From IMG/VR virus record IMGVR_UViG_2534682159_000013: a stretch of 24,608 bases of DNA; one strand, given 5' to 3'. The DNA is from a virus. Lineage: Duplodnaviria > Heunggongvirae > Uroviricota > Caudoviricetes. Position 1 is the first letter of the stretch; each line of letters starts with the position of its first letter. Positions 7,267 through 21,023 of this stretch are shown here, one piece after another. Position numbers and translations under genes: made by a program. Under the pieces are notes generated by a model, which worked only from the letters and a program-made list of their open reading frames with translations, did not search any database and was not told where the DNA came from.

Positions 7267-8275
7267 AAAGGTGAAAACCGGCAGTTCATCCAGTAAGTCA
7301 GTATTGACCTGGCTTGCTGATATGTGCGGTGCCGATTTGTGCGCATACCCGTCTATATCTGCACTGGCAGAAGTAACGGAACTGAACAAAAAGACTGTGC
7401 AGGACAGTTTACGACACCTGATGGAGATTGGGTTAATTGTTGATACTGGTGAGAGAAAAGGCAGAACAAAGCAAATTGTGGTGTACCGACTTATCGGTGT
7501 AGAAGAAAGTGTTGCCGAGCCTGAATACACCCAAAAACGGGAGTCTTTAAAGGTGGGTAAAATTGGTACTGTTAATAAAAACAGTACCGAAAATGGTTAT
7601 GTTTCAGCACAAAACAAACCCAAAAACGGAACTCTTAGCTGCATGGAAAATAACCAAAGACACCCAAATTTTCCATCAAAGACACCCAAAAACGGATCAC
7701 GGAACCCAAAGGAACCCAAAGATCTAAACCCCACACATAACGCACGCGAGAGTGCTCCGACCAGTGAGCAGGAAGTTTTGTCGTTACAGGCAGCGCCCCC
7801 TGTATTCTTGGATGGCCTGAGCGAACCCATCGGGAAATTTTCGATGACTACTGTCTGGCAGCCGTCGCCGGATTTTCGACAACGGGCAGCAGTGTGGGGT
7901 ATGGCTCTGCCTGAGCCGGAATTTACACCTGCTGAGCTTGCCGCATTCCGGGATTACTGGATGGCGGAGGGGAAGGTTTTCACGCAGGTTCAGTGGGAGC
8001 AGAAATTTGCCCGCCACGTGCAGCACGTCAGGGCACAGGTAAAACCAGTCAGCAAGGGGGTAAGCCATGCAGCATCAGGTGGCACGGCATCACGGGCAGT
8101 TCAGGAAATCCGGGCAGCACGCGAACAGTGGGAACGTGAAAACGGATTTATCAGCAACGGAAACGGCCTGGAAGCTGTGGGAGCTTATGGGGGAGGTGTA
8201 TTCGAACCGCTGGACTCAGAAGAATGGGGCCGCACCTTCGAAGCTCTGGATTGCCCAGATTGGTGCGATGACTGA
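7238..8275 (+). CDS. Replication initiation protein, O-like (N-terminal winged-helix, C-terminal DnaT-like region)
   Basis: 345 aa from the ATG at 7238 ('MSIDALRWAKKV...'). N-terminal HTH 'SISALAEVTELNKKTVQDSLRHLMEIGLI'; followed by the P-like gene. Confidence 0.7.
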   Translation: MSIDALRWAKKVKTGSSSSKSVLTWLADMCGADLCAYPSISALAEVTELNKKTVQDSLRHLMEIGLIVDTGERKGRTKQIVVYRLIGVEESVAEPEYTQKRESLKVGKIGTVNKNSTENGYVSAQNKPKNGTLSCMENNQRHPNFPSKTPKNGSRNPKEPKDLNPTHNARESAPTSEQEVLSLQAAPPVFLDGLSEPIGKFSMTTVWQPSPDFRQRAAVWGMALPEPEFTPAELAAFRDYWMAEGKVFTQVQWEQKFARHVQHVRAQVKPVSKGVSHAASGGTASRAVQEIRAAREQWERENGFISNGNGLEAVGAYGGGVFEPLDSEEWGRTFEALDCPDWCDD

Positions 8276-8729
8276 ACAGCAAATCCGTCTGGTCTGCCGT
8301 CAGTGCATGGACCGCTGCCGGGCGGGTGAAACGTGGCCCCCGGACCTGGCTGAGTTTGTTGCGCTGATTTCGGAGAGTGGGGCAAATCCATTTGGTCTTA
8401 CGGTGGATGCCGTGATGGAAGAGTACCGGCGCTGGCGCAATGAATCCTGGCGATACGACGGGAGTGATAAATACCCGTGGCCACAGCCTGTGCTGTACCA
8501 CATCTGCCTCGAAATGCGTACCAGAGGGATTGAGCGCCAGATGACGCAGGGTGAGTTAAAACGACTTGCGGAACGGCAACTGACGAAATGGGCAAAGCAT
8601 GTTGGTAACGGGATGAGTGTTCCGCCAGTGCGACGACAACTGGAAGGGGCGAAACACCCGAAAGGGCCAACGCCAATTGAACGGCTGAAACAGGAATACG
8701 AACGCCGGAAGGCTGCTGGTTTTATTTGA
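8187..8729 (+). CDS. Replication protein P-like (helicase loader)
   Basis: C-terminal two-thirds aligns with lambda P as I recall it: 'PDLAEFVALISE..YPWPQPVLYHICLEMR..GELKRLAERQL' vs lambda 'PSPGQFVAWCRE..YPWKSNAHYWLVTNLY..AELRRKAADEL'. Start is ambiguous: the frame is open from 8067, with ATGs at 8187 and 8268; all overlap the O-like gene. Confidence 0.65.
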   Translation: MGEVYSNRWTQKNGAAPSKLWIAQIGAMTEQQIRLVCRQCMDRCRAGETWPPDLAEFVALISESGANPFGLTVDAVMEEYRRWRNESWRYDGSDKYPWPQPVLYHICLEMRTRGIERQMTQGELKRLAERQLTKWAKHVGNGMSVPPVRRQLEGAKHPKGPTPIERLKQEYERRKAAGFI

Positions 8730-10244: not shown

Positions 10245-10613
10245 ATGACTGAATTAACAAAAGAGCAATTAATCAAAGAAGCCAAATTAAAAATAGCGGT
10301 TGCGAAATGTTACCCTAATTCAGAGATGGCCAGGGTAGAGGGAGAGCTATTCAAAATTGCACTGGCATCGCTGGAGGCGGTTCCGGTGGCATGGCTGCAT
10401 TCAGACAATGGCCTGGGTATTCCAGCAATAACCAGGAGTAAAAACGTTGCTGATAGTTGGTTATCAAAGGGCTGGTATGTTCAGCCGTTATATGTAGCCC
10501 AACCTGTACCGGTGGTGCCGGATGCTCGTCCATCTTTAAATAATGGCATTGTCGGATTTGATGAAGGCTGGAATGCCTGCCGGGATGCCATGCTTAATGG
10601 AGATAAATCATGA
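10245..10613 (+). CDS. Hypothetical phage protein
   Basis: 122-aa ORF whose stop overlaps the next ATG (ATGA at 10610). Confidence 0.55.
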   Translation: MTELTKEQLIKEAKLKIAVAKCYPNSEMARVEGELFKIALASLEAVPVAWLHSDNGLGIPAITRSKNVADSWLSKGWYVQPLYVAQPVPVVPDARPSLNNGIVGFDEGWNACRDAMLNGDKS

Positions 10614-11399: not shown

Positions 11400-11601
11400 T
11401 GCGGGGAAAGAAGAGTTAAGTAGAATTGCTGCGGGTGCTTGAGGCTGTCTGCCTCGGGCATGCCGCCGTAAGGCAGACAGAGAAAAGCCCCAGTTAACAT
11501 TACGCGTCTTGCAGGACGCTTAACATTAATCTGAGGCCCAATCTATGCTTCACAAACGTAGGTTAGCCTCTTACGTGCCGAAAGGCAAGGAGAAGCAGGC
11601 T
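11400..11601. promoter_or_regulatory. hok mRNA leader with fold-back structure; expected region for an antisense Sok-like RNA
   Basis: Inverted repeat 'ctgtctgcct..aggcagacag' (11425-11456) and 'gcgtc ttgcag gacgc' hairpin. No Sok promoter or terminator could be pinned down by eye. Confidence 0.3.
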
Positions 11602-11757
11602 ATGAAGCAGCAAAAGGCGATGTTAATCGCCCTGATCGTCATCTGTATTACCGTTGTTGTGACGGCACTGGTAACGAGGAAAGACCTCTGCGAGGTACGA
11701 ATCCGAACCGGCCAGACGGAGGTCGCTGTCTTCGTAGACTACGAATCTGAGAAGTAA
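11602..11757 (+). CDS. hokD: Hok/Gef family type I toxin (HokD/RelF-like)
   Basis: 51 aa 'MKQQKAMLIALIVICITVVVTALVTRKDLCEVRIRTGQTEVAVFVDYESEK', matching the Hok consensus and close to my recollection of HokD. AGGAG 9 nt upstream. An in-frame upstream ATG at 11545 gives a 70-aa mok-like extension. Confidence 0.85.
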   Translation: MKQQKAMLIALIVICITVVVTALVTRKDLCEVRIRTGQTEVAVFVDYESEK

Positions 11758-15771: not shown

Positions 15772-16830
15772 ATGTTTAATACTGTAAAAATATCCAGTTG
15801 TGAGTTAATCAACGCCGACTGCCTGGAATTTATCCGGTCGTTACCCGAAAATTCTGTTGACCTGATAGTCACGGACCCGCCGTACTTTAAAGTGAAGCCT
15901 GAGGGCTGGGATAACCAGTGGAAGGGCGACGATGACTACCTGAAGTGGCTGGACCAGTGTCTGGCGCAGTTCTGGCGGGTGCTGAAACCTGCCGGAAGTC
16001 TTTACCTGTTCTGTGGCCATCGCCTGGCATCTGACATTGAAATCATGATGCGTGAACGCTTCAGTGTACTGAACCATATTATCTGGGCGAAGCCGTCCGG
16101 ACGCTGGAACGGGTGCAACAAGGAAAGCCTGAGGGCGTATTTCCCCGCCACAGAGCGCATTCTGTTCGCGGAACATTATCAGGGGCCGTATCGTCCGAAA
16201 GATGCCGGGTATGAGGCGAAGGGCAGGGCACTGAAACAGCATGTGATGGCTCCGCTGATTGCTTACTTTCGTGATGCGCGTGCTGCCCTGGGGATAACGG
16301 CAAAACAGATAGTGGATGCCACAGGAAAGAAAAACATGGTGTCGCACTGGTTCAGTGCCAGTCAGTGGCAGCTACCGAACGAAAGCGATTATCTGAAATT
16401 ACAGGCGCTGTTTGCCCGGGTGGCAGAAGAGAAGCATCAGCGGGGGGAACTGGAGAAGCCCCACCACCAGCTGCTGGAGACGTATACTTCACTGAACCGG
16501 CAGTATGCGGAACTGCAGAGTGAATATAAGCATCTGCGGCGGTATTTTGGCGTGACGGCGCAGGTGCCGTACACGGATGTGTGGACGCATAAACCGGTGC
16601 AGTACTATCCCGGGAAACATCCGTGCGAAAAACCGGCAGAAATGCTGCAGCAGATAATCAGCGCGAGCAGTCGTCCGGGGGACCTGGTTGCAGATTTTTT
16701 CATGGGGTCGGGTTCGACAGTCAAAGCCGCGATGGCGCTGGGGCGTCGTGCAACTGGCGTTGAGCTGGAGACTGAACGTTTTGAGCAGACGGTCAGGGAA
16801 GTTCAGGATTTAGTCAGTCAGAACGGATGA
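15772..16830 (+). CDS. DNA methyltransferase (beta-class N6A/N4C, DPPY then FxGSG), orphan
   Basis: 352-aa ORF. 'LIVTDPPYF' (motif IV) near the N-terminus and 'VADFFMGSGST' (motif I) near the C-terminus. No adjacent restriction endonuclease candidate. Confidence 0.85.
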   Translation: MFNTVKISSCELINADCLEFIRSLPENSVDLIVTDPPYFKVKPEGWDNQWKGDDDYLKWLDQCLAQFWRVLKPAGSLYLFCGHRLASDIEIMMRERFSVLNHIIWAKPSGRWNGCNKESLRAYFPATERILFAEHYQGPYRPKDAGYEAKGRALKQHVMAPLIAYFRDARAALGITAKQIVDATGKKNMVSHWFSASQWQLPNESDYLKLQALFARVAEEKHQRGELEKPHHQLLETYTSLNRQYAELQSEYKHLRRYFGVTAQVPYTDVWTHKPVQYYPGKHPCEKPAEMLQQIISASSRPGDLVADFFMGSGSTVKAAMALGRRATGVELETERFEQTVREVQDLVSQNG

Positions 16831-16870: not shown

Positions 16871-16946
16871 GGCCCTTTAGCTCAGTGGTGAGAGCGAGCG
16901 ACTCATAATCGCCAGGTCGCTGGTTCAAATCCAGCAAGGGCCACCA
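16871..16946 (+). tRNA. ileZ: tRNA-Ile2 (anticodon CAU; ileX/ileZ-like)
   Basis: Cloverleaf folded by hand: acceptor ggccctt/aagggcc, D-arm gctc..gagc, anticodon loop 'ctCATaa', T-loop 'ttcaaat', 3' CCA. Near-identical to my recollection of E. coli ileX. A CAU anticodon cannot be distinguished from Met by sequence alone. Confidence 0.85.
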
Positions 16947-16954
16947 TATCCATA

Positions 16955-17031
16955 CCGCCATTAGCTCATCGGGATAGAGCGCCAGCCTTCGAAGCTGGCT
17001 GCGCGGGGTTCGAGTCCTCGATGGCGGTCCA
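16955..17031 (+). tRNA. tRNA-Arg (anticodon UCG)
   Basis: Cloverleaf: acceptor ccgccat/atggcgg, D-arm gctc..gagc, anticodon stem ccagc/gctgg with loop 'ctTCGaa', T-arm cgggg ttcgagt cctcg, 3' CCA. Confidence 0.8.
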
Positions 17032-17309
17032 TTATCTGCATTATGCGTTGTTGGTTCTGATGAGTGAATCATTGTCTTTTGAGCAACAGGCTATCATATA
17101 AGATAGCCTCAGACTTCCTTGTTTATTCTCGCCGGATGCTTCGTAGATATTTGCAGGCATCTGTATGCAGGGGTATTATTGCGGCATATATCATCCGGAA
17201 AAATAAAAACTACATGCTGATCCGGAGATGATAGTTACAAGTCCTCCCGGATCCCGCATATTTACTATATTTTATAGATAATTGTTCTTGTTAATATGGA
17301 GATGGATAA

Positions 17310-17738
17310 ATGTATTGCCGTGCTGTACCTGTTCTTGTTTTGATATTAGCCAGTCTGACAACTGGCTGCACAAAAGATGTATCGACAAATAATCATGATG
17401 CTTCTCTGTATCACTCAGATAAATTAATAAAGTCGCAAAAATTGAGCTCATCGGAACGTACCCCTGATGCCAGTGAAGAAATCCGGCAGTATGCCATTCA
17501 GGTCAGGAAAGCCATAGAAGAACAGTTAAAGGATGCGAGTAAGTATTCAGGAAAAGAGTGTTCACTGAGAATGTATATGGCCCCGAATGGTCTTCTGCTA
17601 CAGGTTAAAAGAGAAAGCGGTGATCCCGATTTATGTCGTGAAGCGATGAATGCAGTAAAGAATGCTGATATACCATCACCACCGTCTTCAGGAGTATATA
17701 AAGCATTTAGAAATGGCGTGTTGGATTTTAAACTCTGA
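17310..17738 (+). CDS. Lipoprotein with TolA C-terminal (TolAIII)-like domain
   Basis: 142-aa ORF with GGAGATGG Shine-Dalgarno. Signal peptide ending 'LASLTTGC' (lipobox-like). C-terminal 'YSGKECSLRMYMAPNGLLLQVKRESGDPDLCREAMNAVKNADIPSPPSSGVYKAFRNGVLDFKL' aligns along its length with my recollection of E. coli TolA domain III ('YAGKTCTLRIKLAPDGMLLDIKPEGGDPALCQAALAAAKLAKIPKPPSQAVYEVFKNAPLDFKP'). Confidence 0.8.
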   Translation: MYCRAVPVLVLILASLTTGCTKDVSTNNHDASLYHSDKLIKSQKLSSSERTPDASEEIRQYAIQVRKAIEEQLKDASKYSGKECSLRMYMAPNGLLLQVKRESGDPDLCREAMNAVKNADIPSPPSSGVYKAFRNGVLDFKL

Positions 17739-17874
17739 CAGGGGGAGAAGATTTTCTCCTGTCCTGATGATTTTGGGGCGCTGGAAAGATATTGTGCTGT
17801 GAAGTGTTAAATCCCTCACAATTCAGTAAGTTGACAGTTGCCTGTCAGACTGAGCATTTGTTAAAAAAATTTCG

Positions 17875-18052
17875 CATGGTGAATCCCCCTGTGCGGAGGG
17901 GCGACTGGTGAACGGTATGATCTCTTTGATGATCGTAAGCGAGAATACGCGGGTTTGGTGTCACCGGGCTGAACTCACCGGGAGGCACCCGGCACCATGC
18001 TCATGGTGATACAGAAATGCGGCTTCAGCCCCTCTCCGGAGGGGCTTTCTTA
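17875..18052 (+). ncRNA. Solitary copy (A) of the repeat-encoded structured RNA
   Basis: Conserved 5' module 'catggtgaatccccctgtgcggagggg', variable middle, conserved 3' module 'caccgggaggcacccggcaccatg', then terminator 'gcccctctccggaggggc' + T-rich tail. In the ATG frame there is a stop after 11 codons. Confidence 0.45.
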
Positions 18053-18204
18053 TGGACAAAAAAAGCCCGCGCTGGGAGACGCGGGCGGCAAGGAATAAAC
18101 AATAAAACGTGAAGTAATACTTCAACTGGCGAATAATACCCGACAGTAATCACTCTGCGCAATAGCGTGGCCTTTTTCGAATTGCGGGCTGTAGTCTCCC
18201 TTCT

Positions 18205-18370
18205 GCCGGGTGTCCTGGTTGCAGATTTCTTCATGGGGTAGGGTTCGGCAGTTAAAGCAGCGATGGCGCTGGGGCGTCGTGCAACTGGCGTTGAGCTGGA
18301 TACCGGGCGTTTTGAACAGATTGCGCAGGAAATCAGGGATGTATTTAGCGGGAGCGGTTTGCAGAAGTAA
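18205..18370 (+). pseudogene. 3' remnant of a second copy of the DNA methyltransferase gene
   Basis: Nucleotide homology to 16672-16830; the first ~100 nt are near-identical by eye. Encodes '..LVADFFMG*GSAVKAAMALGRRATGVELD..' with an in-frame TAG where the intact gene has a Ser codon; no 5' part of the gene is present. Confidence 0.7.
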
Positions 18371-18433: not shown

Positions 18434-19159
18434 ATGGATGTTGCCTGCTCTGTGGTCCTGATTCGCTATCCGATAGATATTTTTCTTGAAAAAGAAAAAG
18501 TTTCACTCGATGCCGGAAGTGTTATGCTTGTTGCCAGAAATATAAGAGGGCTTTTCTGTGCTTATGCCGACAGAGTGAAAATGGCAGATATAAGTAACAG
18601 CGTCGTCAATCAGTATCTGGAAAGGGAGTGTGAACTGACGGAGTATACACCGACAAAAATGCCTCTTTATTTGATGTCTGATATTTACAATACGGAACTG
18701 GCGGAGGCTTTAATAACCCAGCATAGTGAATCCAGTGATACTTTGAAGGATTTCTCTGTTATAACCGCATTTTCATGTATCTCCTTATTTGCAACAGACA
18801 GACGTCTGCCATTATTTTTGTCCGGTGCTGTAAATAATATCAGCTGTAAAGTAAGGGCTATAATTCAGACCGACATATCGGCAGGCTGGATGCTTGGTGT
18901 GATTGCATTACAATTGCATATGAGCGAAAGCTTGTTGAAGCGAAAACTTAAGGATGAAGGTTATAGCTTTAGTCGGTTGTTGCTGGAGGAGCGAATGCGT
19001 GTTGCTGTTAATCTTGTATGTTTCCAGCGAGAGTGTGGACAAGCGATAGCGGAAAAATGTGGTTACTCAAGTAAGTCCTACTTCATTTCTGTATTTCACC
19101 AGTATTATGGTGCACCACCTGAGAGCTATGCATATTTGCAGAAAGCAGACGTTATCTGA
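18434..19159 (+). CDS. AraC/XylS-family transcriptional regulator (prophage-encoded)
   Basis: 241-aa ORF. C-terminal double HTH ('WMLGVIALQLHMSESLLKRKLKDEGYSFSRLLLEERMRVAVNLV..AIAEKCGYSSKSYFISVFHQYYGAPP'). AT-rich. Confidence 0.8.
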   Translation: MDVACSVVLIRYPIDIFLEKEKVSLDAGSVMLVARNIRGLFCAYADRVKMADISNSVVNQYLERECELTEYTPTKMPLYLMSDIYNTELAEALITQHSESSDTLKDFSVITAFSCISLFATDRRLPLFLSGAVNNISCKVRAIIQTDISAGWMLGVIALQLHMSESLLKRKLKDEGYSFSRLLLEERMRVAVNLVCFQRECGQAIAEKCGYSSKSYFISVFHQYYGAPPESYAYLQKADVI

Positions 19160-19527: not shown

Positions 19528-19846
19528 AACATATCCTGTATATTTATGTTGTTACATACAGGCGCTTTTAGTATCTGCCGCACGGCAGTTGTACTTCAGA
19601 ATAAGATGCTTTTGTGACTGGTGGTGTTGTATCTGGGGTTAGCCAGTAGGCAGGTTCAGAGAGTCCGGTGGTAATTATGTGTATGCAGTGGTTGTTGCTG
19701 TACCGTGGGCAAGTTCTGGAACTGGCTTCGTCCATTGTAGATGATTGTTAGCTGGATATCAGTTACCTCATGGAAATGTTAAATGACTCACAATTCGGTT
19801 GATGGGCTATTGTCTGATCGATGGAAGTCTTGTAAAAACGAGCCAG

Positions 19847-20010
19847 CATAGTGAATCCCCCTGTGCGGAGGGGCGTCTGACATGGTCTCCATAGCGATGG
19901 TCACAATACGCAGATTCAGTAGTCAGGCTGAATCTACCGGGAGGCACCCGGCACTATGCTGCTTATGGTGTATACATAGCGATCGGCCCCTCTCCGGAGG
20001 GGCTTTTTTT
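19847..20010 (+). ncRNA. Repeat-encoded structured RNA, copy B
   Basis: 5' 'catAgtg' pairs with 3' 'cacTatg' (compensatory change relative to the other copies); no ATG at the 5' module. Confidence 0.45.
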
Positions 20011-20105
20011 GTGCGGGAAAAGGCTGTGTTGTTAAGTGTTAAATTCCTCACAGTTCAGATGGTTGATGCTTGCCTGTCTGAGGGGGAGTTGTTAAAAAAG
20101 TTCTG

Positions 20106-20279
20106 CATGGTGAATCCCCCTGTGCGGAGGGGCGACTGGTGTGATTTGCATCTTTTCTGTTGTAGGCAATGCAAACGCGGGTTCAGGGACACCAGACTGG
20201 ACTCACCGGGAGGCACCCGGCACCATGTTCATGATGATACAGATACGCAGTGTCAGCCCCTCTCCTGAGGGGCTTTTTT
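20106..20279 (+). ncRNA. Repeat-encoded structured RNA, copy C
   Basis: 5' catggtg pairs with 3' caccatg. Variable region carries nested stems 'ctggtgt..acaccag' and 'tttgcat..atgcaaa'. Confidence 0.45.
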
Positions 20280-20375
20280 ATGCAGGAAAAACGCTGTGTT
20301 GTGAAATGTTAAATTCCTCACAGTTCAGATGGTTGATGCTTGCCTGTCTTACGGGGAGTTGTTAAAAAAGTTCTG

Positions 20376-20539
20376 CATGGTGAATCCCCCTGAGCGGAGG
20401 GGCATATCAGCGCAGGTGTTTCTACTCTATCCTTTCTGTGCGGGTTCAGGTGCTGATACTGAACTCACCGGGAGGCACCCGGCATCATGCATATGGTTAA
20501 CAGACACGTAGCGAAGCCCCTCTCCGGAGGGGCTTTTTT
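20376..20539 (+). ncRNA. Repeat-encoded structured RNA, copy D
   Basis: 5' catggtg pairs with 3' catcatg (one G-U). Variable stem 'tatcagc..gctgata'. Loop of the 5' hairpin is changed (gagcgg) while the stem is kept. Confidence 0.45.
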
Positions 20540-20636
20540 ATGCAGGGAAAAGGCTGTGTTGTGAAATGTTAAATTCCTCACAATTCATGAGGTTGATGAT
20601 TGTCTGATTGATGAGGAGTTTGTTAAAAAAAACGGG

Positions 20637-20790
20637 CATGGTGAATCCCCCTGTGCGGAGGGGTGATATCGTATCATTTCCTGTGTGGCCGACTGATATC
20701 ACGGACATTTGTTCACCGGGAGGCACCCGGCACCATGCAGTATACAGAGATTAGGCATACATCCAGGCTCCTCATCGCAGGAGCCTTTTT
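20637..20790 (+). ncRNA. Repeat-encoded structured RNA, copy E
   Basis: 5' catggtg pairs with 3' caccatg. Variable stem 'gtgatatc..gatatcac'. Terminator sequence differs ('ggctcct catcgc aggagcc ttttt') but sits at the same position. Confidence 0.45.
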
Positions 20791-21023
20791 ACATGTAAAA
20801 AAAAACCGCTCCTGGGAAGAGCGGTTGGCAAGGAAGCAAGGAATAAATAACAAAACGTGAAGTAATTTATTCAGCACCCTAATAATACCTTAGAGTAATC
20901 ACCTTGCGCAACTGTAAGGGCGTATTTCTTTTTTGCGGGCTGTTTTTCTGTGTGACTTTTGTGTTTCCGGAGGTCAGCCCGTGCCTTCTCTGACTCAGAA
21001 CATTATCCCGGCCGGGAGGATTC

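Follow-up and report, generated by a model that had tools for sequence, protein, structure and literature searches.

Cor, encoded by phi80, N15 and HK022, is a phage superinfection-exclusion lipoprotein of the outer membrane. In Ff-infected cells a g3p-mediated immunity shuts the Tol entry route. Llp of T5 is treated as a superinfection-exclusion lipoprotein in a preprint (bioRxiv 10.64898/2026.03.26.714494), and the interface between g3p-N1 and strand beta3 of TolA domain III (TolAIII) has been described (PMC7391070). The TolA point mutations D418P and K420P abolish binding of TolB, colicin N (ColN) and g3p; Kd values are ~1 µM for ColN and ~40 µM for TolB, and once beta3 is mutated so that TolB no longer binds, the cells are leaky and show the full tol phenotype (PMC4339652). 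When TolAIII is exported to the periplasm by the signal of ribose-binding protein, E. coli becomes leaky and releases periplasmic proteins (PMC6195910). On Klebsiella plasmids a tolA/TonB gene pair has been remarked upon, for its presence alone (PMC10269471). Full-text literature searches found no study on the function of the TolAIII lipoprotein of prophages or plasmids. A paper on the evolution of TolA and TonB does not mention detached lipoprotein forms (PMC12204202), another deals with chromosomal tolA (PMC2948877), and a report linking TolA to a CP-933O gene was discarded because its supplement calls that gene a tail fibre (PMC11125564).

Here we analysed a window of 24,608 nucleotides of a Caudoviricetes virus (IMG/VR record IMGVR_UViG_2534682159_000013), which encodes a 142-residue protein related to these systems in different ways. 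With E. coli TolAIII (1S62, 3QDP, 1TOL, 2X9A) it shares the fold, ~50% identity, both disulfide cysteines and an identical LDFK motif. Unlike E. coli TolA, it lacks both the transmembrane helix that binds TolQR and helical domain II, and its gene is not part of a tol-pal operon; whereas TolA reaches out from the inner membrane, the prophage domain is, by prediction, suspended from the outer one. It resembles the engineered periplasmic TolAIII fusions in being an isolated domain with predicted export and without connection to the motor; unlike these, it is natural, encoded by a mobile element, predicted to be lipid-anchored on a tether and ~50% diverged from the host domain. Like Cor and Llp it is a small phage-encoded lipoprotein, predicted to reside in the outer membrane and to block competitor entry. 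Yet there is no sequence relationship, and while Cor and Llp plug FhuA, the prophage protein would mimic a periplasmic energy transducer as a decoy. It may use the same g3p-N1/TolAIII beta3 interface as Ff immunity, with the roles exchanged: there the ligand saturates host TolA, here a TolA copy would saturate the ligand. Also close in kind is the pair 'tolA' and 'TonB family protein' on Klebsiella ColRNAI bacteriocin plasmids such as p69-3 (NZ_CP025459.1), a mobile lipoprotein TolAIII of 37% domain identity with a TonB-C companion, as in the prophage. This pair resides on plasmids instead of a prophage, and the signal peptide of its TonB-C protein is of the ordinary kind, without a lipobox.

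A TolA domain III without anchor and stalk in the stx slot

The original prediction had proposed an AT-rich gene with a Shine-Dalgarno sequence of its own, located behind two phage tRNAs at the locus where Stx phages carry stx. All of this was borne out (Table 1). The open reading frame is real, and in a genome 100% identical to the window RefSeq places WP_000271626.1 at exactly these positions. The GC content across the gene is 0.39-0.43 versus 0.53-0.58 in the flanking methylase. The tRNAs are of type CAU (Met according to ARAGORN, Ile according to PGAP) and Arg-UCG. The prophage is lambdoid and integrated at ompW. A direct comparison was made with the Stx2a phage Stx2_EH2201, which carries the same methylase and tRNAs at 98% nucleotide identity and, behind them, a third tRNA and then stx2AB; beyond window position 17052 it is no longer homologous. 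This confirmed that the TolAIII gene fills the stx slot of an stx-less relative of the Shiga-toxin phages. In all 83 viral loci examined the gene is located between Q and the holin gene on the late strand, and the phages carrying it also possess holin, endolysin and an Rz-type lysis protein. The protein matches PHROG 5772, labelled 'unknown function'. The same prophage encodes a lipoprotein with a TonB C-terminal domain. Its PHROG label 'Rz-like spanin' is probably a mislabel based on position; the Pfam TonB_C match is at 5e-15.

Table 1. Positions of the TolAIII lipoprotein gene, its parts and its neighbours in the window.
Feature	Position	Strand	Basis and remarks
Two phage tRNAs directly 5' of the gene	16871..17031	+	ARAGORN, Rfam; 16871-16946 and 16955-17031
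Weak sigma-70-like site TTTGCA-18-TATTAT	17150..17179	+	promoter scan; 9/12 matches, significance uncertain
Shine-Dalgarno GGAG, 8 nt 5' of ATG	17298..17301	+	direct sequence reading
CDS of the 142-aa lipoprotein-TolAIII protein	17310..17738	+	ORF list; ATG start, stop codon 17736-17738
Predicted signal peptide with lipobox, residues 1-20 (MYCRAVPVLVLILASLTTG-C)	17310..17369	+	homologue alignments, lipobox pattern
Disordered tether (predicted), residues 21-53 (~30 residues)	17370..17468	+	pLDDT, dN/dS
TolA domain III, residues 54-142	17469..17735	+	Pfam, PDB match, model, dN/dS
Strand beta3 VLDFK, residues 137-141, equivalent to TolA 416-420	17718..17732	+	alignment, DSSP
12-bp hairpin overlapping the stop codon, candidate weak terminator	17737..17763	+	without canonical U-tract
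STnc100-family sRNA unit directly 3' of the gene	17845..18057	+	Rfam RF02076, 172 bits

Upstream of the gene, the promoter scan returned no more sites than in shuffled sequence, and no convincing promoter belongs to the window allele. For the type C allele a site with 10/12 matches was found, and in the commonest E. coli allele a near-consensus site, TTGAGC-18-TATAAT, is located 30 nt 5' of the ATG. Downstream, the RNA fold of 17730-17800 amounts to -20.9 kcal/mol, its z-score is a weak -1.6, and the terminator scan did not flag the hairpin. Of the traits expected of a moron (atypical composition, promoter and terminator of its own), the AT-rich composition fits; the 3' hairpin lacks a U-tract, and the promoter is weak in the window allele. 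In type C relatives an STnc100 element is found upstream of the TolAIII gene instead (upstream-region alignment). An AraC-family regulator and nanS-p, other host-directed cargo, adjoin the gene. A methylase remnant is also close by, which marks the region as recombinogenic.

The likeness to TolAIII had been claimed for the last ~65 residues. The likeness stands, its extent was set too short: 88 residues (54-141) align gap-free to E. coli TolA 333-420, and the TolAIII consensus given in the original prediction agrees with the printed alignment. The profile and structure searches it had suggested confirmed the fold. Pfam PF06519 scored 81.4 bits against a cut-off of 25 (5.7e-23, residues 52-140 covered), and the best PDB matches are the TolAIII structures 1s62/3qdp/2x9a/1tol at E = 1.6e-25. 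The domain was modelled with a pLDDT >90 as an alpha/beta fold with a three-stranded sheet. This predicted structure is superposable on solved TolAIII, with a TM of 0.94 and an rmsd of 0.7 A on 2x9a_B; 3qdr, 3qdp and 1tol are also among its top structure matches. Cys84 and Cys109 correspond to TolA Cys363 and Cys388, are invariant in the family and form a putative disulfide. Outside the prophage family the nearest sequence is the host's own TolAIII, to which ~50% of the residues are identical.

Is this a second TolA? The matches to TolA models cover only model positions 298-386 and 262-361. There is no transmembrane anchor for coupling to TolQR, as the sole hydrophobic segment is the predicted cleavable lipoprotein signal. 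Helical domain II is missing from a protein of 142 residues compared to 421 in TolA, with residues 21-53 predicted to be disordered, and instead of the ybgC-tolQRA-tolB-pal-cpoB operon the surroundings are those of a prophage, between tRNAs and lysis genes. A real second TolA was therefore rejected, as three of four defining features fail. The prophage gene is shown to encode a host TolA domain III cut loose from its inner-membrane anchor and helical stalk. Model NF007065 was failed with 103 bits against a cut-off of 213, whereas TIGR02794 was passed (76.2 versus 59.45) on the C-terminal domain alone. Probably this pass is the origin of the RefSeq name 'cell envelope integrity protein TolA', a misnomer because membrane anchor, helical domain II and tol-pal context are all missing.

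Predicted lipidation and the beta3 strand

In the N-terminus, MYCRAVPVLVLILASLTTGC, a basic n-region and a hydrophobic core precede a Gly-Cys lipobox. R4 is followed by AVPVLVLILASL and then by TTG-C, which fits a permissive PROSITE-type lipobox pattern, with Thr in place of the usual Leu at -3. Cys20 is the predicted lipidated residue; it is invariant in 28-30 diverse short homologues of 24-72% identity to the window protein (alignments A2, A3). A PROSITE-like lipobox pattern was present in 148 of 189 short TolAIII-type proteins and in one of 51 long TolAs. The structural part of the original prediction, a lipoprotein signal in place of the TolA anchor and the helical domain, is fully supported, also by the match of PF06519 and the PDB entries to domain III. 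Export and lipidation of the protein are predicted. Sorting of lipoproteins is governed by the residue at +2. With Thr instead of Asp at this position, the protein is predicted to be sorted by the Lol pathway to the outer membrane and anchored in its inner leaflet. The tether follows, with a pLDDT <50 for residues 24-50 (MSA-based model) and the weakest constraint in the protein (dN/dS 0.36-0.87). In being prophage-encoded with a predicted lipoprotein signal, the protein resembles superinfection-exclusion lipoproteins of the Cor/Llp type.

At the other end of the protein, DSSP on the model assigned a strand to the beta3 residues. Its residues L138, D139, F140 and K141 do not vary within the E. 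coli prophage family and are the same as L417-D418-F419-K420 of E. coli TolA. The retained beta3 is equivalent to the strand at which the TolB N-terminus, colicin N and g3p-N1 bind TolA by beta-augmentation, and is predicted to serve likewise. Among the non-redundant lipoprotein forms 79% keep D418, versus 33% of the chromosomal TolAs. Of the colicin A face only a part is preserved: where TolA has K368, which pairs with the essential Tyr58 of ColA, the family has Tyr, His or Asn (Tyr in the window protein, unlike E. coli TolAIII), and LLDIKP of TolA reads LLQVKR in the prophage protein.

Spread and selection

Of 5426 complete E. coli genomes, 897 (16.5%) carry the prophage family, in every case with the gene placed between Q and lysis genes, and it is present in 125 IMG/VR contigs; for P0051-like relatives, no counterpart was found in IMG/VR. 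The domain is under purifying selection, with dN/dS of 0.21-0.38, and the 142-residue reading frame is intact in all related viral loci examined. In some alleles of the common type (P0019-P0029) a frameshift deletes beta3, hence the gene is dispensable in some strains. Lipoprotein TolAIII homologues occur on 743 plasmids. They also stand alone on chromosomes and plasmids in non-phage settings, unlinked to lysis genes, and in Klebsiella quasipneumoniae a chromosomal copy is conserved. In Salmonella, a homologue has a pore-forming colicin gene and microcin V genes as neighbours. The 10-kb ColRNAI plasmids of Klebsiella carry a lipoprotein TolAIII gene which overlaps that of a secreted TonB-C protein, and the pair adjoins a bacteriocin-immunity-lysis cluster. 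The E. coli homologue P0191 is located among genes for a Lom/Ail-like outer-membrane beta-barrel, Mig-14 and a YadA-type adhesin.

Possible roles of the tethered domain

The original prediction had considered a decoy or a modifier of Tol-Pal. Circumstantially this was strengthened by the invariant beta3, purifying selection, bacteriocin neighbours and TonB-C companions. The reading we prefer, plausible though somewhat short of probable, is that the outer-membrane-tethered TolAIII is a decoy which blocks Tol-dependent import of colicins and filamentous phages. The domain keeps the edge strand by which TolA captures the TolB N-terminus and which is exploited by colicin N and by g3p of filamentous phages. 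The tether would hold it just beneath the outer membrane, at the place where the translocation domains of colicins and g3p-N1 come through first. In this position it may bind TolA-seeking epitopes and colicin-activated TolB while being uncoupled from the TolQR motor. Invaders would be held on a dead-end receptor, energised import would fail, and the lysogen would tolerate Tol-dependent (group A) colicins and phages of the Ff/If1/IKe type. Considering the affinities of ~1 µM for invaders and ~40 µM for TolB, moderate expression could suffice without a collapse of Tol-Pal. The TonB C-terminal lipoprotein of the same prophage may act likewise on Ton-dependent invaders.

Several lines point to such a decoy: the identity and fold of the domain, its separation from the anchor, stalk and operon of TolA, and the lipobox Cys conserved across a broad family; the LDFK strand, invariant in the E. 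coli prophage family and essential for binding of TolB, ColN and g3p; the selection, intact reading frames and spread over E. coli genomes and IMG/VR contigs; the bacteriocin-gene neighbours on plasmids and in Salmonella; and the TonB-C parallel in the same prophage. A precedent is the release of periplasmic proteins by exported TolAIII, which reportedly also gives colicin tolerance, an observation ascribed to Levengood-Freyermuth et al. in 1993. Expression outside lysis is suggested by the stand-alone homologues and by the near-consensus site of the commonest allele. Against a decoy speak the Thr at -3 of the lipobox, the partly changed colicin A face, the alleles which have lost beta3, and PADLOC, which has no model and returned no match for the TolAIII lipoprotein. 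Furthermore, a decoy for the TolB N-terminus should also harm the Tol-Pal system of the host. Lastly, given the position between Q and lysis genes and no convincing promoter, the window protein may be made mainly after induction when protection matters little.

There is a different view, which we consider unlikely. Made late, after Q antitermination, the tethered TolAIII would titrate TolB off TolA, switch off Tol-Pal and loosen the outer membrane, thereby aiding lysis, progeny release or the release of periplasmic or vesicle cargo. The invariable location between Q and holin, in a slot used by stx, the absence of a strong promoter in the window allele, the leakiness caused by exported TolAIII and the leaky phenotype of beta3 mutants all fit. 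However, homologues on plasmids and chromosomes are unlinked to lysis genes, the commonest allele has its own promoter, the phages are already equipped with holin, endolysin and an Rz-type protein, and the pairing with TonB-C has no obvious lysis role.

Alternatively, the protein may be a factor of lysogenic conversion which tunes Tol-Pal in the growing lysogen, for instance raising vesiculation or changing permeability or stress tolerance, without any role against invaders. The AT-rich, moron-like character, the adjoining host-directed cargo, the surroundings of P0191 and the conserved copy in K. quasipneumoniae are in line with this. As it leaves unexplained the link to bacteriocin loci and the TonB-C pairing, it appears improbable as well. 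Finally, that a piece of bacterial tolA was taken up by the phage and now decays as a non-functional remnant is very improbable and effectively refuted by the conservation data: the ~50% identity to host TolAIII as the nearest outside sequence, the frameshifted alleles and the recombinogenic neighbourhood would agree with it, but a signal peptide with lipobox was added and conserved, a Shine-Dalgarno sequence is present, the frame is intact in every viral locus with dN/dS well below 1, and the family is widespread in E. coli.

Returning to the decoy, it can be extended to a general import shield, a proposal we regard as possible but rather doubtful. Enterobacterial prophages and bacteriocin plasmids would carry detached TolA and TonB C-terminal domains, either outer-membrane-tethered or periplasmic, as decoys which make the carrier broadly tolerant of bacteriocins and phages that depend on Tol or Ton. 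If true, this would be a defence by mimicry of host domains, unlike cognate immunity proteins or receptor plugs.

If the TolAIII lipoprotein is a decoy, about one in six sequenced E. coli strains would possess an unrecognised, transferable tolerance to group A colicins and filamentous phages. The same would hold for hundreds of Klebsiella plasmids, among them small bacteriocin plasmids from clinical isolates. Work is under way to turn colicins, klebicins and phages into narrow-spectrum antimicrobials against STEC and Klebsiella, and such a factor could blunt them. It would bear on the competition of lysogens in the gut. It would also provide a naturally evolved dominant-negative TolAIII, with a TonB counterpart, for the dissection of force transduction to the outer membrane. 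The widespread annotation error by which these genes are named as a second 'TolA' would be corrected. The stx slot of Stx-type phages can hold alternative, envelope-directed cargo.

A TolA domain III protein in the stx slot

The gene under study, an ORF of 142 codons that starts with ATG, has its own Shine-Dalgarno sequence, GGAG, 8 nt 5' of the start codon. The identical CDS is present in RefSeq as WP_000271626.1 (100%-identical stretch, E. coli STEC2017-197). Residues 54-141 aligned without gaps with residues 333-420 of E. coli TolA (E = 1.6e-25; PDB chains 1s62, 3qdp, 2x9a and 1tol); residue n corresponds to TolA n+279. The original prediction had estimated a similarity to TolA domain III (TolAIII) of about 65 residues, but it extends over 88, i.e. 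all of domain III. The Pfam TolA C-terminal model scored 81.4 bits (cut-off 25). An AlphaFold model computed from 30 homologues had pLDDT values >90 over residues ~52-142 and <50 over residues 24-50. Its top PDB matches were all E. coli TolAIII, 2x9a_B first (TM 0.94, rmsd 0.7 Å), followed by 3qdr, 3qdp and 1tol, and a single-sequence model reproduced the result. Profile and structure searches thus confirmed the TolAIII fold.

In E. coli TolA (421 aa), a membrane anchor at the N-terminus is followed by a long helical domain rich in Ala and Lys and then by domain III; the protein is encoded in the ybgC-tolQRA-tolB-pal-cpoB operon. As predicted, anchor and helical domain are absent from the 142-aa protein; the operon setting is absent, too. 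On these three grounds TolA proper was rejected. The NCBIfam equivalog NF007065 scored 103 (cut-off 213); TIGR02794 was passed (76.2 vs 59.45) through the C-terminal domain alone. Probably for this reason every database copy bears the name 'cell envelope integrity protein TolA' or 'colicin import membrane protein', both of them artefacts of automated annotation.

The host element is a lambdoid prophage integrated beside ompW. In the window, integrase, excisionase, exonuclease, dicB, repressor-region genes, replication genes and hok/sok are followed by DUF968, rusA, Q, a DNA methylase, two tRNAs and the TolAIII-lipoprotein gene, then by a methylase 3' remnant, an AraC-family regulator, nanS-p and holin. 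Methylase and tRNAs match those of the Stx2a phage Stx2_EH2201 at 98% nt identity. This homology stops at window position 17052, 21 nt past the second tRNA, and past the two shared tRNAs the Stx2 phage continues with a third tRNA, stx2A, stx2B, nanS-p and lysis genes. Therefore, the TolAIII-lipoprotein gene sits exactly in the stx slot, the late-region place where Stx phages carry their toxin genes. The stx locus, the two tRNAs immediately 5' and the AT-richness of the gene (GC 0.39-0.43 vs 0.53-0.58 in the adjoining methylase) had all been correctly recognized beforehand. All 83 related loci, almost exclusively from IMG/VR, have the gene between Q, with or without the methylase, and holin on the late-gene strand.

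The methylase remnant marks a recombination scar flanking the tRNA/TolAIII cassette, and the regulator is a second cargo gene within the slot which only some relatives have. One STnc100 unit is directly 3' of the TolAIII-lipoprotein gene; the other four form a head-to-tail array 5' of nanS-p. In phages with type C, the commonest E. coli allele and distinct from that of the window, an STnc100 element is 5' of the gene, between it and Q. STnc100 is a prophage-encoded sRNA which shares ancestry with PasD (2026 preprint).

Coordinates of features in the window and in related sequences (L001, the RefSeq stretch of E. coli STEC2017-197; TonB-C, TonB C-terminal domain)
Feature	Sequence	Position	Remarks
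TolAIII-lipoprotein gene	window	17310-17738 (+)	
Methylase 3' remnant	window	18210-18370	repeats C-terminus of intact methylase 15772-16830 (MALGRRATGVEL...); pseudogene in RefSeq
AraC-family regulator gene	window	18434-19159	AT-rich; Pfam HTH_18 and HTH_AraC
STnc100-family (RF02076) sRNA units, n = 5	window	17845-18057 and 19817-20796	
hok/sok-type toxin-antitoxin	window	11433-11757	Rfam sok 117.7 bits at 11433-11607; Hok/Gef family CDS
'Valyl-tRNA synthetase' pseudogene, incomplete	window	10245-10613	L001 11406-11768; RefSeq label
Prophage TonB-C lipoprotein, 108 aa	L001	28455-28781 (window coordinate ~27294)	MKRNLPLIILLSSLVMG followed by CTQ...; Pfam TonB_C 5e-15
TolAIII lipoprotein, 128 aa	L088, Salmonella enterica contig	8001-8387	beside pore-forming colicin
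TolAIII/TonB-C pair	L091, K. pneumoniae p69-3, NZ_CP025459.1	2115-2848 (-)	123-aa and 121-aa genes, 4-nt overlap
TolAIII homologue (144 aa) with preceding gene	L097, K. pneumoniae IncFIB plasmid NZ_CP132648.1	5406-6435	33% identity over full length; thioredoxin-fold gene precedes

Lipoprotein signal and binding surfaces

In the N-terminus (MYCRAVPVLVLILASLTTG followed by Cys), a basic residue is followed by a hydrophobic core of 12 residues and a Gly-Cys lipobox. Because residue -3 is Thr, where Leu is usual, the lipoprotein call would be tentative if based on the window sequence alone. The comparative evidence for a lipoprotein signal is strong. The E. coli family uses three dissimilar signal peptides (MYCRAV...TTGC, MYCRGL...TAGC and MGFRSAS...IIGC) whose G-C ends share one position. 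When 28-30 short TolAIII proteins, 24-72% identical to the window protein, were aligned, no more than eight or nine columns were invariant, the lipobox Cys among them. A PROSITE-type lipobox pattern matched 148 of 189 short proteins (100-170 aa, a few of them TonB-C lipoproteins) vs 1 of 51 long TolAs. At the level of sequence, with a predicted lipobox and a Cys conserved across homologues, the lipoprotein signal peptide of the original prediction thus holds. After the lipobox Cys comes Thr and not Asp. Residues 21-53, a region of predicted disorder, evolve fastest (dN/dS 0.36-0.87 vs 0.21-0.38 in the domain). The mature, lipidated protein would be a TolAIII domain on a flexible tether of ~30 residues beneath the outer membrane.

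In TolA, beta3 (L417-D418-F419-K420) is the edge strand which pairs with the TolB N-terminus, colicin N and g3p-N1 (PMC4339652; PMC7391070). D418P or K420P alone abolishes all three interactions and causes the full tol phenotype (PMC4339652). The window protein has the same residues, L138-D139-F140-K141, and these are invariant across the E. coli prophage family. D418 is retained in 79% of 68 non-redundant lipoprotein forms vs 33% of 52 chromosomal TolAs. The colicin A face, beta2 (L375-P380) plus K368, K379 and K396 (PMC3365938), is kept in part: LLDIKP is changed to LLQVKR and K368 to Tyr; K379 and K396 are unchanged. Both cysteines, C363 and C388, are retained.

Distribution and TonB-C partners

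Of 5426 complete E. coli genomes, 897 contained between one and three members of the family; chromosomal tolA was not among these matches. The allele type of the window (at least 90% nt identity) is present in about 120 genomes. A second type (~80% nt, 67% aa identity) is present in about 750 and in phage mEp460_ev081. Outside its own family, the window's domain has its nearest relative in E. coli TolAIII (51%), and no other lipoprotein form exceeds 49%. To E. coli TolA, other lipoprotein forms reach 61-66% identity. These values suggest either that the 3' ends of host tolA were captured repeatedly, or that the proteins kept tracking their host partners.

An exhaustive, profile-free search yielded 303 relatives, many of 115-160 aa and aligning from their N-termini; most of those inspected have lipoboxes. 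In Klebsiella quasipneumoniae and one further bacterium the homologue is a stand-alone chromosomal gene. E. coli and Enterobacter homologues belong to the cargo regions of phages, accompanied by Lom/Ail-like, Mig-14 or YadA-type genes. A Salmonella enterica island (contigs L088-L090) combines a TolAIII lipoprotein and its neighbouring colicin with two microcin V-family genes, an export system and resolvases. Plasmids with a homologue numbered 743, 670 of them from Klebsiella. The ~10-kb ColRNAI plasmid p69-3, near-identical versions of which are represented by dozens among the matches listed, pairs a lipoprotein TolAIII (123 aa) with a TonB-C protein with an ordinary signal peptide (121 aa), adjoining a nuclease bacteriocin, an immunity gene and a lysis gene. 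A cloacin plasmid with TolAIII and TonB-C genes has been reported without further comment (PMC10269471). Large Klebsiella plasmids provide the setting exemplified by L097; on another plasmid the homologue abuts psiA in a region adjoining partition genes.

The prophage has a TonB-C lipoprotein gene as well, ~10 kb 3' of the TolAIII gene, past the lysis genes and about 2.7 kb beyond the window end. It recurs in phage 21, Stx1a phages and 415 complete E. coli genomes, and the record of phage ev017 calls its copy a CP-933N tonB-like gene. In view of the Pfam TonB_C match, the label 'Rz-like spanin' of PHROG 1267 for this protein is probably a position-based mislabel. From the Klebsiella pair and the prophage gene we conclude that two unrelated kinds of mobile element carry detached tips, predicted to be exported, of both envelope energy transducers.

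Possible functions

Exported TolAIII has a dominant-negative effect and reportedly (Levengood-Freyermuth, 1993) gives colicin tolerance. Also related are the phage lipoproteins Cor and Llp, which block entry. PHROG 5772, the family of the TolAIII lipoprotein, is labelled 'unknown function', no PADLOC model matches it, and a search of the accessible literature found no functional study of a prophage or plasmid TolAIII lipoprotein. A TolAIII lipoprotein that is natural, mobile and widespread and has a counterpart for TonB appears to be undescribed, and its database sequences are misleadingly named.

The TolQR motor pulls in group A colicins and filamentous phages only if these reach TolA, directly or via TolB (PMC7391070). 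An isolated TolAIII under the outer membrane would present the same docking strand, linked to nothing, and would be expected to trap incoming epitopes that bind TolA, or TolB activated by colicin, in a dead end. In view of the affinities, ~1 µM for colicin N and ~40 µM for TolB (PMC4339652), moderate amounts could be enough to intercept invaders while sparing most of the normal TolA-TolB cycle. Engineered TolAIII export disturbs the envelope (PMC6195910). A protective role as a decoy is favoured over any other because it best fits the association with bacteriocin loci and the TolA/TonB pairing; its chances are tentatively put at not quite even.

A late-gene envelope destabiliser that aids lysis or release would agree with the late-region position and the weak promoter evidence in the window's allele, but is considered rather unlikely, being weakened by the non-phage homologues and by a 10-of-12 promoter match 5' of the commonest allele. 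A lysogenic-conversion factor tuning Tol-Pal, e.g. vesiculation, is considered equally unlikely. Functions other than those discussed here are improbable.

A decaying fragment is effectively excluded by conservation: the ORF is intact at 142 codons in all related loci whose match starts at the start codon, and pairwise dN/dS among the three types is 0.32-0.40 overall. Gene loss does occur, as some type C database alleles (P0019-P0029, mostly from Logan assemblies) are frameshifted after residue ~124. Their last 17 residues including strand beta3 are replaced by an unrelated tail (157-163 aa in total), and they are likely loss-of-function alleles.
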